DNA of 64,000 nucleotides from Blastocatellia bacterium (GTDB lineage: Bacteria; Acidobacteriota; Blastocatellia; Pyrinomonadales; Pyrinomonadaceae): the NCBI GenBank assembly GCA_033856735.1, contig JAWVEM010000025.1, forward strand, positions 972 through 64,971, given 5' to 3'. Shown here in pieces: positions 32,550 to 36,448 of the stretch. The notes beneath the pieces were generated by a model that worked only from the letters and a program-made list of their open reading frames with translations, made no database searches and was not told where the DNA came from. The translations under genes were made by a program, and so were the position numbers. Within the stretch, counting starts at the first letter, position 1. The number at the start of each line of letters is the position of its first letter.

Positions 32550-32918
32550 ATGTCTGGATGGGAGATCGCGGCAATCGTTGCCTTGGTATTGGCGTTGCTT
32601 ATCGGCGTCGCGGCGATCATCGTTTACGTAGTCGCGGAAGATCGATTGCCTCCGAGCCGGCAGCAGGAAAGGCTGCCGCCGATCGTCTTTCGGCATGAGC
32701 CATTCGGTACGATCACGCCGGGGCTGATTTCATTTAGATCAAGCGAGGCACATCGACGGGTTACGCCACGCCAATTCAACTTTCGGAATGATGGTAATGA
32801 CATCAGGACTAGAGAGATCAAAGAGGACCTCGACTTGTATTGCAAGCTAACCGGTAGACTGGCACGCGATTGCCGATGTGAGTTCTGTAGGAAACTGAAG
32901 GAAAAACTTGGAACCTAA
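32550..32918 (+). CDS. Small membrane-anchored protein with a C-terminal Cys cluster
   Basis: N-terminal TM helix (IAAIVALVLALLIGVAAIIVYVV) and C-terminal CKLTGRLARDCRCEFC. It overlaps the E1 start by 11 nt. Confidence 0.5.
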   Translation: MSGWEIAAIVALVLALLIGVAAIIVYVVAEDRLPPSRQQERLPPIVFRHEPFGTITPGLISFRSSEAHRRVTPRQFNFRNDGNDIRTREIKEDLDLYCKLTGRLARDCRCEFCRKLKEKLGT

Positions 32919-34176
32919 TAACGACAAAGTGTTTTCGCGCGAGCGATTGGCAGGATACGACCCGGAACGCATGAGTCGTAGCTGCGTGTTAGTGGTAGGG
33001 GCTGGCGCTCTTGGACAAAACACCGCAATGAATCTCGCATTGGCGGGCTTAGGGGAACTGCGGATTGTCGACAAGGACATCTTTGAAGAGCACAACCGCA
33101 CGCGTAGCCCGGCCTATCCTCTGCCTGATGAGGTGGACCGCTACGGAACCGACAAAGCCGGTGCCGTCGCTCGTAAACTGCGGCGCCTAATGACGGCAAA
33201 GCACCCTTCGATGTACTACGCAAATAACTGGATTCAAGAATTGGGTGACGGAGCGTTTCGCGGCGTGTCTGTCGTTGTGTCGTGTGTCGACTCGCAACTC
33301 GCGCGTGCTTACCTGTCGGACAAGACGAGACAGCACGGGTTGCCTTTTATTGAAGGCGGCTTTCAGGCTGCGAACATCCGGCTGACCTGCTTTCCCGCGG
33401 CGCGCCCGGAAATCACAAAGACGCTGCCATGCTGGCGGTGTTCTCACCCAACGGTCGAAGGCAGCTTTTCCTGTGCTAACTACGCGCAGCAAGCAGAAGC
33501 GTTGGGCGTGATCCCGGCAATCCAAAATGCGGCCGCGGTATTGGGTGGCCTGCAGGCTGAAGCCGCAATACAAGCTGTTCATCACGAACCGACCGGTAGC
33601 GAGACTGCCCGATGTTTTGAGTTCAACGTAAGAACGTGGAAGGCCCGAACCGTAGAGCTTGCAAAGGATCCGAAGTGCCCGGGCCTCCATCGCCTGCTTG
33701 ATTCGCAGCCGATAATACTACAAACGACCGCGGACGATACGGTGGCGGAACTGCTTGTCGAAATGGGCGAGCACCTGGGAACGCAGGCATGCATCTGGCT
33801 ACCGATGAAAACGTATTCCAAGTATTTGTCGGCGATGCCATGCAGTAACCCCAAGTGCCGGAACATCGTCGCAGTGCGTGGCCCTGAGTGGCGCTGGAAG
33901 ATGAATCCGCGTTGTTCGGACTGTGATGGACCGTTCTTACCGATGCGTGACGGGGCCGGCGTCTCAAGTTACGCGGTACCAGAATTGAGTTTGAGCTCCA
34001 GCCCTGAGGTGTTGGAAGCGACGTGTCGAACAATTGGCCTGGCTCCTCTTGGGCTTGTTGCCGGAGCCGAGGCAGCCTCGACGCAGGCCCACTTTGATGA
34101 CGCCCCCCCGCCGGCCCTATTTCAATTGCCCGGATCGTTGGATGAACTTTATCAATCAGGAGAAAACACACCATGA
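32908..34176 (+). CDS. ThiF/MoeB-type E1-like Ubl-activating enzyme
   Basis: VLVVGAGALGQNTAMNLALAGLGELRIVDKDIFEEHNRTR Rossmann motif, plus paired CxxC motifs (CWRC; CPKCRN...CSDCDG). The stop overlaps the Ubl start (ATGA). Confidence 0.8.
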   Translation: MEPNNDKVFSRERLAGYDPERMSRSCVLVVGAGALGQNTAMNLALAGLGELRIVDKDIFEEHNRTRSPAYPLPDEVDRYGTDKAGAVARKLRRLMTAKHPSMYYANNWIQELGDGAFRGVSVVVSCVDSQLARAYLSDKTRQHGLPFIEGGFQAANIRLTCFPAARPEITKTLPCWRCSHPTVEGSFSCANYAQQAEALGVIPAIQNAAAVLGGLQAEAAIQAVHHEPTGSETARCFEFNVRTWKARTVELAKDPKCPGLHRLLDSQPIILQTTADDTVAELLVEMGEHLGTQACIWLPMKTYSKYLSAMPCSNPKCRNIVAVRGPEWRWKMNPRCSDCDGPFLPMRDGAGVSSYAVPELSLSSSPEVLEATCRTIGLAPLGLVAGAEAASTQAHFDDAPPPALFQLPGSLDELYQSGENTP

Positions 34177-34484
34177 CCGAAGAAACACTCGAGATCCACT
34201 TCATTCATCCTCACACCAGCAAAAGGCTGGTGGCAGATCTCAGTCCGAACTGCACCGGAACCGATGCCTTGCACGCGCTTCTGAGCGCGGACGGCGGCGA
34301 TGGCCCATTTCTAAGTCAGGCCGGCGGCCAAACCTACGAATTGTCTTTGGAAAGAACCGGTACCGCGATTACTCCCAACATGACATTTCGCGAGGCCGGA
34401 GTGATTAACCGCGACATTATCAACATCGCTCCGACCGTAATTGGCGCTGGGTCAGTCTTCAGATCAGGACCGGGACAGACCTAA
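34173..34484 (+). CDS. Ubiquitin-like beta-grasp protein (BilA-like), precursor form
   Basis: 103 aa. The beta-grasp-like fold ends in ...PTVIGAG and is followed by a 13-aa tail, SVFRSGPGQT and preceding residues. It sits between the E1 and E2 genes. Confidence 0.7.
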   Translation: MTEETLEIHFIHPHTSKRLVADLSPNCTGTDALHALLSADGGDGPFLSQAGGQTYELSLERTGTAITPNMTFREAGVINRDIINIAPTVIGAGSVFRSGPGQT

Positions 34485-34567
34485 CGGTCTCACGTTGACC
34501 GTGTGCGAAGAATTGCTTTCCCGGGTCTTGCTGAACCAATGAATTGTTGCCGCAAAGGAGAATGGCC

Positions 34568-35269
34568 ATGACCGAATCGCTGGACGAGAGTGACCGTCGT
34601 TCAAGGCTCACTTACGACTATCAAACCGCGATGATGATGAGGCCTCTAATGGAGGCCGAGGCATACCGCAATCTGGACGACTTGTTGGCGCGCCGCAACC
34701 GCATAGACTCCGTCGCGGACGCGTATTTAGCGACGCACTATCGCGTTCTCTATCGGGTCAGAACGCTGATTGGCCCCGCGCGTTATTGGGATGAAACGAC
34801 AGTGCGCTTTGATCTCTTTGCCAACAATGATTATCCAATGAACGAACCCGCCAGTTGGGTCATCGACGGTCCAATGCCGTGGTCGCCGCATTTTCTGGAG
34901 GGTCGTGAGATCTGTATCGGCCCAATTTGGAAACGAGCCCAAGGCAGGATTCTGCTCTGTGAACTGATGATTCATGTGGCCAGGTTGCTGAATTTCGATG
35001 AGCCCCCCTACGAAGATCCCGAGTATGGAGGCTGGCAACCAGATGCGGTGGAATATTGGGAGACGACGCTTGGCAGACAGCCAATTAGCAAATTGGTGTA
35101 TCCCTCTGTACCACGTCGCGTCCCGCCGCCAGCGGAACCGGAACCTGAACAGCCGACAAGAGCGATCGTCTTCCGTAATACGATTGAATGGAGCCCACCC
35201 AGCATCAGGATTAGACCACAAGCTCCCGCTGAGTCAGCTTCTTCGCTGATCAAAGTCAGGCCTCAATGA
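34568..35269 (+). CDS. E2-like ubiquitin-conjugating enzyme homolog
   Basis: PWSPHFLEGREICIGPIW resembles the E2 HPN...C active-site region. ATG at 34568 lies 7 nt after AAGGAG; the ORF opens at 34544. Confidence 0.6.
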   Translation: MTESLDESDRRSRLTYDYQTAMMMRPLMEAEAYRNLDDLLARRNRIDSVADAYLATHYRVLYRVRTLIGPARYWDETTVRFDLFANNDYPMNEPASWVIDGPMPWSPHFLEGREICIGPIWKRAQGRILLCELMIHVARLLNFDEPPYEDPEYGGWQPDAVEYWETTLGRQPISKLVYPSVPRRVPPPAEPEPEQPTRAIVFRNTIEWSPPSIRIRPQAPAESASSLIKVRPQ

Positions 35270-35293
35270 AATGGCTTAGACCCAACGTTACTT

Positions 35294-36448
35294 ATGTCGA
35301 AGATTAGGATCAGAACAACTTACGATCCGGTTTCCCCGTTGATTCGCTCTCGACCCGAGAACAGCCGGGATCTCAGGACCTTTCGATCCGCGGACAATAA
35401 CTTTGCGGCGTATGTGCACGCTGACGTGCTCGAGTTTATCCGGCAACAGGCGATTCTGGGTGGTCAGAATGAAGCCATCGGCCTGATTGCCGGCAGGATT
35501 TGTCACGATCCAAGAACGGGTCCTTATACGCTAGTGCTGGCTGCTGCTGAAGCCCGCGAAGGAGAGTTCCGCTCCACGCCGAGTTTCGTCCGGCTCTTGC
35601 CCGAGGGCCACCGACGGCTTCGTCACCGGCTCGCAGACGCTCATCCCGATCGAGAGATAGTAGGTTGGTACCACACGCACCCAAATTACGAACCATACTT
35701 TAGCTCAGTGGATTTTGAGGAGCAGAAGAATTGGAATGATGAAAACCAGATTGGCATCGTGTACGGCACCGAGCACACCGGCGAGCCTTTCGGAGTCTAT
35801 CAGGGTCCGGGGGCGATTCCGCTCACACCCGTAGGTAAGATCGATCCTCTGCACGATAGGCCACCGCGCCGATCCGCAAACCGTTTGGAGATTCGACAGG
35901 CGCCGAACACACCTGCCCCGATAATAGAACCCTCAGCCTCGGCTGGAGTCCAAAAGGCTCCGCGTCGCATTTGGTACCGCAGAATCGAAATCGTTTTACC
36001 AACAGTCATCGTTCTGATCCTGGTCGCCGGTGGCCTAACTCTCTTGTCTATCAATCGGCGTCTGTCAGTTGCCGAGAAACGGCTGGAGGAATTGCCTCAT
36101 GCCCGCCCAGCTTCTGAAAGGATTACAGAAACAGAACCCCCACACATTTCCGCGGGACTCGAGGCAAAGCCGAGCGTTTCACCCGAGGTCGCTGAAAAAC
36201 TCAAGAGGGTGGATGATCCGGAATTGAATCCTCCGGTGAAGTCGCTGTCGCCGGAAACCACATCCAGTAAAAAGTTAACAAGGCAGGGCGTTGCCGACTC
36301 AAAATCGCGGGCTTCAAAACGCAAGCGTGAAAACAACAAAAAGACGGAAGTCGGGCCTCGTAAGCAAGCGACGCCGAAAAAAAGCCTCAGTGCGCCAGGA
36401 GAGCAGATATTTCCGTCGTCCTCACCAAAGCCAAATTCGCCATTATGA
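35294..36448 (+). CDS. JAB/MPN (JAMM) metalloprotease with a TM helix and a Lys/Pro/Ser-rich tail
   Basis: NEAIGLIAG (Glu) and GWYHTHPNYEPYFSSVD (HxHx7SxxD). TM helix IEIVLPTVIVLILVAGGLTLLSI, followed by a ~120-aa low-complexity tail. Confidence 0.8.
   Translation: MSKIRIRTTYDPVSPLIRSRPENSRDLRTFRSADNNFAAYVHADVLEFIRQQAILGGQNEAIGLIAGRICHDPRTGPYTLVLAAAEAREGEFRSTPSFVRLLPEGHRRLRHRLADAHPDREIVGWYHTHPNYEPYFSSVDFEEQKNWNDENQIGIVYGTEHTGEPFGVYQGPGAIPLTPVGKIDPLHDRPPRRSANRLEIRQAPNTPAPIIEPSASAGVQKAPRRIWYRRIEIVLPTVIVLILVAGGLTLLSINRRLSVAEKRLEELPHARPASERITETEPPHISAGLEAKPSVSPEVAEKLKRVDDPELNPPVKSLSPETTSSKKLTRQGVADSKSRASKRKRENNKKTEVGPRKQATPKKSLSAPGEQIFPSSSPKPNSPL

Follow-up and report, generated by a model that had tools for sequence, protein, structure and literature searches.

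Five tightly packed open reading frames (ORFs) on the + strand at 32550-36448 were analysed in a 64,000-nucleotide stretch of DNA from a Blastocatellia bacterium (Acidobacteriota; GenBank assembly GCA_033856735.1, contig JAWVEM010000025.1, positions 972 to 64,971 of the forward strand), hereafter the window. They encode a transmembrane (TM) miniprotein with a putative zinc knuckle, an E1-like activating enzyme, a ubiquitin-like protein (Ubl), an E2-like conjugating enzyme and a JAMM/JAB metallopeptidase (Table 1). This rare five-gene set from a soil acidobacterium is previously unmodelled. An earlier note, made from the letters of this DNA alone, had described an E1-Ubl-E2-JAB set in this gene order, and both the set and its order were borne out, as the ORFs lie where they had been placed and the folds agree.

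The cassette has the layout of a single translational unit. The E1 starts at a TTG preceded by an AAGGA Shine-Dalgarno sequence and overlaps the miniprotein stop by 11 nt, the E1/Ubl junction is an ATGA overlap, and the ATG of the E2 is preceded at 7 nt by AAGGAG. Since all five ORFs have homologues (E-values down to 1e-150) and their order is kept in more than 25 independent contigs, they are not chance ORFs. Look-ups and scans yielded 41 related loci (named L001 and so on), from which residue invariance was counted over 24 E1s, 33 E2s and 26 JABs. A promoter/terminator scan of the locus gave a signal no higher than shuffled background and was not used.

Table 1 The cassette and other features of the window.
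Feature	Position	Strand	Evidence
TM/Zn-knuckle miniprotein, 122 aa	32550..32918	+	Hydropathy, Cys positions, same-design ORF in relatives
E1-like activating enzyme, 422 aa	32908..34176	+	Pfam ThiF 4.2e-29
Ubl, putative precursor form, 103 aa	34173..34484	+	AF2 model, Foldseek, family alignment
E2-like conjugating enzyme, 233 aa	34568..35269	+	AF2 model, Foldseek, invariant Cys
JAMM/JAB metallopeptidase, 384 aa	35294..36448	+	Pfam Prok-JAB 8.8e-9; JAB 1.1e-7
TIR-repeat protein heading the operon, 1190 aa: TIR domain (residues 82-200), then helical repeats over ~1000 aa	28915..32487	+	TIR_2 3.2e-19
Small acidic protein, 73 aa	36474..36695	+	Similar ORFs in the same place in L001, L004; no Pfam match
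DUF4407 membrane/coiled-coil protein, 459 aa	36710..38089	+	Pfam 8.4e-79; several hydrophobic segments
ThsB-like TIR protein, 128 aa, optional	38105..38491	+	ThsB_TIR 5.3e-10; PADLOC ThsB 5.5e-11
Caspase-family peptidase, 335 aa	38512..39519	+	Peptidase_C14 7.5e-19; SGHG His, DCCHSG Cys by eye
SLOG-like protein, 180 aa; last conserved gene of the operon	39492..40034	+	Weak YpsA/SLOG 1e-3, below Pfam cutoff
TPR-CHAT protease-like protein, 1192 aa, divergent	23832..27410	-	CHAT 1.6e-72; TPR_12 2.8e-50
Second Ubl paralogue, 138 aa	27604..28020	-	46% identity to cassette Ubl, E 9e-21
64-aa repeat protein, two GGxTxEDRSK repeats	28447..28641	-	Between CHAT and TIR genes; no Pfam match
Bub/6E/DUF6527 operon: Multi_ubiq Ubl (121 aa, ...TEG), Prok-E2_E E2 (132 aa), JAB-E1 fusion (460 aa), DUF6527 (121 aa)	14846..17363	+	Bub Pfam models 1e-17 to 1e-35
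Tyrosine integrase	6396..7487	-	
DUF2130 protein	8764..10002	-	
M78 peptidase-UvrD helicase fusion	10005..13502	-	
HEAT-repeat protein, 1109 aa	18073..21402		CHAT-like C-terminus by eye
ECF-type sigma factor	23187..23753		

The E1 is a single-domain enzyme with an invariant crossover-loop cysteine

The E1 contains one ThiF adenylation domain (residues 20-258), and its best PDB sequence matches were Uba4, UBA7, UBA1 and MoeB. GAGALGQN at residues 31-38 carries the GxGxxG loop, whose G31, G33 and G36 are invariant in 24/24 sequences together with D55, R66 and D128; Cys189, within a short crossover loop, is likewise invariant in all 24. The same E1s uniformly retain an adenylation-domain Zn site (C175-x2-C178 and C257-x3-H261) and, within a C-terminal domain of ~160 aa, a zinc ribbon (C312-x4-C317, C336-x2-C339). 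The Rossmann loop had thus been read correctly from the letters alone, whereas the accompanying "paired CxxC" was too loose, as C257-x3-H261 and C312-x4-C317 are not CxxC pairs. Profile comparison of the C-terminal domain with the Ubl family and with the PDB produced nothing significant.

The Ubl family shares a Gly-Ala end followed by variable tails

An AF2 model of the Ubl built from 80 sequences (predicted local distance difference test, pLDDT, 80) shows the order beta-beta-alpha-beta-beta-(alpha)-beta. Its Foldseek matches, all with probability 1.00, included UBL3, ubiquitin, SUMO1, the EccD Ubl domain, Caldiarchaeum Ub and, at rank 41 and at the level of fold only, BilA. The earlier note had made its reading depend on a beta-grasp fold for this protein, and the model is of that fold. 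Searched as a single sequence, the Ubl had no match in Pfam, NCBIfam or PADLOC and only noise in the PDB, and the sole match of its profile to the PDB was a sub-threshold one to SUMO1, which serves as a register check only. An identical 103-aa Ubl is on record in a Blastocatellia (Acidobacteriota) metagenome-assembled genome.

The Ubl family comprised 132 clusters, and the C-termini of 80 sequences were aligned. The aligned end is Gly-Ala in 76/80 and Gly-Gly in 2/80; 23 of the 80 members terminate exactly at the Ala, and the others carry tails of 1-42 aa that show no conservation. In the window the protein ends ...VIGA followed by GSVFRSGPGQT, with G91-A92 as the conserved end, so that the predicted mature Ubl spans residues 1-92 (34173-34448) and is followed by an 11-aa tail (34449-34481). 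Two details of the earlier description consequently had to be changed: the residues beyond ...VIGAG number 10, not 13, and cleavage would fall after the conserved Gly-Ala rather than after GAG, which makes the removable tail 11 residues long.

Fusions place the same end inside longer chains. A Myxococcales relative (L009) encodes a Ubl-E2 fusion with ...AVGA joined to APTERR, and a full hidden Markov model (HMM) search returned ~20 Ubl-E2 fusions and two Ubl-Ubl-E2 proteins (P0296, P0304). Nearly all Ubl units in the fusions that were read end in two small residues, mostly G-A. The tandem proteins recall polyubiquitin precursors. Because the G-A end is conserved, the tails are variable or absent, and Ubl-E2 and Ubl-Ubl-E2 fusions exist, the comparison strongly supports the earlier proposal that the Ubl would be trimmed from a precursor. 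Adenylation needs a free C-terminus; therefore, tailed or fused Ubls would require a peptidase, and the conserved core encodes none other than the JAB. Experiments in Bil, Bub and Caldiarchaeum have demonstrated that pro-Ubls and Ubl-E2 fusions undergo JAB-type cleavage (PMC10557695, PMC11601596, PMC5654768). Collectively, family comparison points strongly to processing of the Ubl by the JAB. The mature Ubl is poor in lysine (median 2, none conserved), which argues against chain building. The predicted trypsin remnant of a Ubl conjugate is DIINIAPTVIGA.

The E2-like protein is modelled as a UBC fold with an atypical turn

The other fold on which the earlier reading had been staked was a UBC fold for the 233-aa protein, and this is the fold that the AF2 model shows (37 sequences; pLDDT 82.6, core >90). 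The top 50 PDB matches of the model in Foldseek were all eukaryotic E2s (Rad6, Ubc13, UbcH5 etc.) with probability 1.00 and TM-scores of 0.6-0.69 on the target. The UBC-fold core covers residues 1-185, with SPHF at residue 106 and ICIG at 115, and the predicted catalytic cysteine is Cys116 (codon 34913-34915). C116, Y89, P90, P94 and W105 are invariant in 33/33 E2s, and the protein has the traits of the UBC-fold superfamily, namely a YPxxPP-like flap and an HPN-like turn that precedes the catalytic Cys. With E allowed up to 10, the profile drew from all PDB sequences just three eukaryotic-type E2s of the UBE2W type, all sub-threshold and used as a register check only, in which Y89-P90..P94, P107-H108 and C116 align with the E2 flap, turn and catalytic Cys.

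Beyond this register, sequence comparison was negative. The E2 had no match in Pfam (including UQ_con), NCBIfam or PADLOC, and its single-sequence PDB search gave noise. With hhalign, the family aligned in register with UbcH5B (an approximate query sequence) at a non-significant probability of 1.9%, and no alignment was obtained with the Bub E2 encoded elsewhere in the window. As the E2 and Ubl families are without Pfam, NCBIfam and PADLOC models, systems of this kind are invisible to annotation and defence-finder pipelines. A word search of 5.8 billion proteins placed 36 clusters in the E2 family, and a full HMM scan of 1.84 billion proteins found 204 representatives (E up to 1e-3). It occurred in 5/185,579 species-representative genomes (four Acidobacteriota and one Myxococcales), and no relatives were found in viral contigs, phage records or plasmid records.

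The turn itself (34883-34915, residues 106-116) reads S-P-H-F in place of the H-P-N of canonical E2s and lacks the HPN Asn, and UBE2W-type E2s have H-P-H at this turn. UBE2W-type E2s modify protein N-termini. By analogy with this turn, the Ubl might be attached to something other than lysine. At its C-terminus the E2 has a disordered tail that bears two I-x-(I/V)-R motifs. Alternating hydrophobic-basic, strand-like motifs occur in this tail (SIRIRPQ and LIKVRPQ, 35180-35269), at the N-terminus of the JAB (KIRIRT, 35294-35320) and before the Cys cluster of the miniprotein (REIKEDLD, 32805-32840), and the orthologues of all three proteins retain them. Such motifs might serve as strands of the SUMO-interacting-motif type that bind the Ubl.

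The JAB and the miniprotein carry membrane anchors

The JAB has its catalytic domain at ~residues 40-170, and E60, H127-x-H129-x7-S137-x2-D140 are invariant in 26/26 sequences. The catalytic set is therefore intact, as the identification of a JAMM protease from the letters implied; the motif, then spelled HTHPx7SSVD, is the canonical HxH-x7-S-x2-D. Among PDB sequences the JAB matched best a homologue of Rpn11 from Caldiarchaeum (6fjv, 7e-6) and next Rpn11 proteins, and the Caldiarchaeum enzyme processes pro-ubiquitin (PMC5654768). The TM helix and K/P/S-rich tail already noticed in this protein are both present. The TM segment lies at ~229-251, and a hydrophobic 19-mer scoring >1.8 is found in 23/26 JABs, in L009 and L040 right at the C-terminal end. 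The tail measures 132 aa (14% S, 13% P, 12% K, 11% E), and a long tail is specific to the acidobacterial group. Across acidobacterial orthologues the tail (36050-36448) contains a conserved motif, (P/A)xK(S/P)LxPE, which makes the tail look more like a docking site than a simple spacer.

The miniprotein has one N-terminal TM segment (Kyte-Doolittle 19-mer maximum 3.19), a Pro-rich linker, and cysteines 98, 108, 110 and 113 in a C-x9-C-x-C-x2-C cluster followed by a short basic helix. Its coupling to the E1, which the earlier note had pointed out, proved to be a conserved part of the module: in ~20 loci, including the divergent marine L039, the E1 start is reached or overlapped by an ORF of this design. 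It had no Pfam match (no RING or other zinc finger) and none in NCBIfam or PADLOC. The consensus of the cluster is C-x2-(T)G-x6-C-x-C-x2-C; L011 has His for the first Cys, L040 has CxxC...HxH and L041 has CxxC..CxH. Because His replaces Cys in some loci, the cysteines are probably metal ligands and not disulfides. Moreover, no positive charge precedes the TM helix in the miniprotein N-termini that were read (~18 of the ~20 loci), so that by the positive-inside rule the knuckle is predicted to be cytoplasmic. A periplasmic disulfide cluster was considered and rejected in view of the Cys-to-His and CxxC..HxH variants and the lack of N-terminal positive charges. The most distant module with context, in L009 (Myxococcales contig, 1-10281), is without the miniprotein.

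Since the anchors on the JAB and the E1-coupled Zn protein are widely kept, tethering looks like an old, ancestral property of the module, and old anchoring of both the eraser and the Zn protein supports chemistry at the membrane. An E3-like or adaptor role for the miniprotein and conjugation at the envelope, both suggested earlier, may reasonably be supposed. The candidate parts for the miniprotein are those of E1 receptor, E3-like adaptor or substrate.

The cassette is the core of a conserved operon with immune-type genes

The earlier note did not include the surrounding genes, in which the cassette forms the core of a conserved 11-gene operon accompanied by a divergent TPR-CHAT gene. The Pyrinomonadaceae-type order is TPR-CHAT (-), then TIR-repeat, miniprotein, E1, Ubl, E2, JAB, (small acidic), DUF4407, (ThsB-like TIR), caspase and SLOG-like. 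Across this island of ~16 kb (23832-40034) the gene order persists at protein identities of 33-85%, whereas the genes beyond its limits vary, and the + strand genes of the operon overlap or are separated by 14-62 nt. TIR-repeat orthologues stand directly upstream of the cassette in L001-L008, L011, L012, L014, L015, L025, L027, L034 and L038, and DUF4407 stands immediately 3′ of the JAB in all acidobacterial-type loci with downstream DNA. The caspase gene is conserved in most related loci at 55-85% identity, and TPR-CHAT is kept at the same place in most. Orthologues of the SLOG-like protein occur in 9 loci, and the gene that follows it in the window (39998-41569) is not conserved; the ThsB-like TIR gene is confined to the window, L001 and L027. 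Scanning the operon genes revealed no CD-NTase. A literature search on the term DUF4407 returned only unrelated papers.

Four divergent loci (L033, L039, L040 and L041) contain the five-gene core without TIR, caspase or DUF4407, next to HerA-like, relaxase, HD-CE or unrelated genes, mobile-element genes among them. The core is therefore a self-sufficient module that became fixed in an immune-type operon in one lineage. An E2-family relative, P0158 (439 aa), is a Ubl-E2-TIR fusion, which together with a TIR-FGE gene beside the Myxococcales module suggests an affinity to TIR proteins. By eye, the flanks of that module carry the TIR-FGE/sulfatase-modifying-like gene on one side and an Hsp70-like ATPase and a 677-aa helical protein on the other.

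Smaller genes accompany the operon in the window. The second Ubl, which the earlier note likewise did not include, adjoins the TPR-CHAT gene directly upstream; its core ends ...AVGA and continues into a 42-aa hydrophobic tail. It is not present in most related loci, and L027 has an extra - strand Ubl copy at 7163-7450. A role of the hydrophobic tail as a membrane anchor was rejected, the tail not being conserved in the near-identical P0088. The 64-aa repeat protein has homologues in the same position in L001 and L011, and L004 has an uncompared 61-aa gene there; the repeat protein seems to resemble KGG-type general stress proteins. The small acidic gene overlaps a longer, spurious ORF that starts at 36291.

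The wider window contains further genes of a defence island (Table 1). The canonical Bub/6E/DUF6527 operon is a second, unrelated Ubl-conjugation system of this island, and the strong matches of the Bub Pfam models to it acted as an internal control. The ECF-type sigma factor, with a 301-aa putative anti-sigma protein, lies downstream of TPR-CHAT.

A proposed model for reversible Ubl tagging at the membrane

We put at roughly 70% the probability that the set is a complete, enzymatically intact five-gene Ubl-conjugation module at the cytoplasmic face of the inner membrane, working as follows. The Ubl would be synthesised as a precursor, and the anchored JAMM peptidase would trim its variable tail to expose Gly91-Ala92-COOH. 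The E1 would adenylate the Ala92 end and then load the Ubl on its crossover-loop Cys189, from which it would be moved to Cys116 of the UBC-fold E2 and on to an amino group of the target; the same JAB could make the mark reversible. Translational coupling would supply the TM Zn-knuckle miniprotein in fixed proportion to the E1, and the miniprotein, in the role of adaptor or minimal E3, may anchor or direct the E1 and E2 at the membrane. As for the output, we favour a reading in which membrane tagging would gate or localise the immune-type effectors encoded alongside. Comparative genomics has described Ubl systems that are coupled to caspase effectors (PMC7159879).

Pressed further, the same model would make the cassette an immune signalling hub, in which the Zn-knuckle membrane protein would be a minimal E3 or E1 receptor and Ubl tagging at the inner membrane, carried out by the E1 and E2 and erasable by an anchored Rpn11-like deubiquitinase, would switch on TIR, caspase and DUF4407 proteins by means of a Gly-Ala modifier possibly attached to N-termini. 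To this full version we give little credence. Such a hub, if true, would parallel in bacteria the ubiquitin-gated TIR-to-caspase signalling of animals.

Several points weigh against the proposed model and its link to the effectors. The metal ligands of the miniprotein number only four and its fold is not recognisably that of an E3, profile comparisons do not make the E1 C-terminal domain recognisable as an E2-recruiting ubiquitin-fold domain (UFD), and an Ala C-terminus is unusual among E1-activated Ubls. The charges flanking the JAB TM helix do not fix its topology. Furthermore, the core occurs without TIR, caspase and DUF4407 in L033 and L039-L041, so that the functional link is not obligatory, and synteny inside one bacterial family could partly reflect shared descent. 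What the sequences and models show are the folds, the catalytic residues, the Gly-Ala end with its variable tails, the fusions, the anchors and the synteny; cleavage, the thioester steps, topology, the part played by the miniprotein and the target are inferred from them.

Alternative functions of the cassette

The alternative that survives best, which we regard as possible yet on the unlikely side, is an autonomous, Bil-like anti-phage tagger whose E2 would directly recognise an invader protein, such as a virion protein or an entry protein at the membrane, and mark it with the Ubl, with TIR, caspase, CHAT and DUF4407 being separate systems that share the island. The four divergent loci, where the core stands without those neighbours beside HerA-like, relaxase and HD-CE genes, fit this well, as does the nature of the window, a defence island that houses an integrase and a Bub operon; Bil works in this way without an E3 (PMC11601596, bioRxiv 10.1101/2023.09.04.556158). 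However, in more than 15 loci the cassette sits in mid-operon, with a TIR-repeat gene at its head and a DUF4407/caspase/SLOG tail, while the outer flanks vary, and this arrangement, the existence of the Ubl-E2-TIR fusion and the lack of E2 relatives in the phage and plasmid collections all speak against this alternative.

A membrane protein quality-control or degradation tag, placed on membrane or envelope-stress substrates as proposed for Caldiarchaeum-type systems and Pup, strikes us as decidedly improbable. The JAB is closest to Rpn11-type enzymes, the module is membrane-anchored and the small repeat protein conserved nearby seems to resemble stress proteins, all of which would suit such a tag, but the conserved neighbourhood holds TIR, caspase and CHAT genes and no proteasome, AAA+ unfoldase or FtsH gene, and presence in only 5 of the 185,579 species representatives fits an accessory or defence function rather than housekeeping. 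A sulfur-carrier or cofactor pair of the ThiF/MoeB-ThiS/MoaD kind, or MccB-like peptide modification in place of protein conjugation, is almost certainly wrong: the E1 has lower-scoring matches to MoeB, ThiF and MccB, but it lacks a rhodanese domain, the Ubl ends G-A and matches ubiquitin and SUMO in fold, the conserved core includes a JAMM peptidase and a UBC-fold E2 whose Cys is invariant, and no sulfurtransferase or cofactor-biosynthesis gene was found among the scanned neighbours.

Comparison with known systems

That bacteria do conjugate Ubls, and do so in immunity, was established only lately, through CBASS Cap2, Bil and Bub. Beside these, the cassette would be a fourth, mechanistically distinct branch, distinguished by eukaryote-like Cys thioester chemistry, a single-domain E1, a Gly-Ala modifier, an anchored eraser and a membrane Zn-knuckle instead of a RING. 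Its association with TIR, caspase, CHAT, SLOG-like and DUF4407 proteins would offer a tractable test of Ubl control over bacterial death and immune effectors, as in animals, and possibly a first functional handle on DUF4407.

Type II CBASS, an antiphage signalling system based on cyclic oligonucleotides, shares E1/E2 chemistry and a JAB eraser with the cassette, and Cap2 and Cap3 regulate an immune signalling enzyme, the logic proposed here for the TIR protein. PADLOC models of Cap2 and Cap3 match the Rossmann part of the E1 and the JAB, and E1-E2 models cover only the N-terminal half of the E1 (at most residues 6-164). In contrast to the separate E1, Ubl and E2 of the cassette, Cap2 is an E1-E2 fusion that works without a free Ubl on the C-terminus of the CD-NTase. 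In Bub a JAB-type peptidase frees the Ubl, as the JAB is predicted to do here, and fusions occur in both: the type I Ubl-E2 protein is cut after Gly (PMC11601596), and the relatives of the cassette include Ubl-E2 and polyUbl-E2 proteins. The Bub E1 and E2, however, lack the catalytic Cys and use Tyr and Ser oxyesters, whereas Cys189 and Cys116 are conserved without exception here (24/24 and 33/33), and the Pfam models for the DUF6527 protease, Prok-E2_E and Multi_ubiq give no match to the cassette.

Bil resembles the cassette in having separate Ubl, E2, JAB and E1 genes, no RING E3 and a defence-island context, and its JAB pre-processes the Ubl and can deconjugate it (PMC10557695, PMC11601596). 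The Bil E1 has the architecture IAD-AAD-CYS (PMC11601596), unlike the single ThiF domain with crossover-loop Cys189 of the cassette. The mature Bil Ubl ends in Gly instead of Ala, PDB searches gave no sequence-level match of the cassette proteins to BilB, BilC or BilD, and neither the membrane anchors nor the Zn miniprotein are described for Bil. The label "Bil-like" attached to the cassette in the earlier note hence suits its probable way of working but not membership, which the E1 architecture, the lack of a Bil model match for E2 and Ubl, and the Ala end speak against.

The Ubl tri-ligase of FtsH-ternary systems likewise places an E1, an E2, a JAB and a Zn-finger partner inside a caspase-bearing conflict system, and its Ubl-E2 fusion is presumed to be released by the JAB (Kaur et al. 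2020, PMC7159879). In place of MoxR, vWA and FtsH genes, which are missing from the conserved neighbourhood here, and of an effector-associated (EAD) adaptor domain, none of which was recognised, the partners of the cassette are TIR-repeat, DUF4407, SLOG-like and TPR-CHAT proteins, and a TM four-ligand knuckle takes the place of the RING.

The Caldiarchaeum/Asgard-type operon comprises a pro-Ub with a 9-aa tail, an E1 with a C-terminal Ubl-like domain, an E2, a small RING protein (srfp) and Rpn11 (PMC5654768), and Acidobacteria, Planctomycetes and Actinobacteria are reported to have operons related to it (PMC5654768, PMC6043591, PMC4197634). There the modifier ends in di-Gly and here in Gly-Ala; there the E3 is a small RING-H2 finger (C3H2C3, eight ligands) and here a TM four-ligand knuckle stands in that position. 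The JAB of the cassette is moreover membrane-anchored, its E2 and Ubl are too diverged for Pfam models, and it is embedded in a TIR/caspase/CHAT/DUF4407 operon. A 2011 survey of RING and treble-clef domains in prokaryotes by Burroughs, Iyer and Aravind reportedly lists bacterial operons, possibly with this cassette type among them. The cassette and the Caldiarchaeum-type operon share five genes, for a small Zn protein, a single-chain E1 that carries an additional C-terminal domain, a short-tailed Ubl, a Cys E2 and a JAMM peptidase, and in both a pro-form Ub-fold modifier (with an 11-aa tail here) stands beside an Rpn11-like JAMM peptidase. The cassette is not a member of Bil, Bub or CBASS, and the Caldiarchaeum-type operon is its closest analogue.

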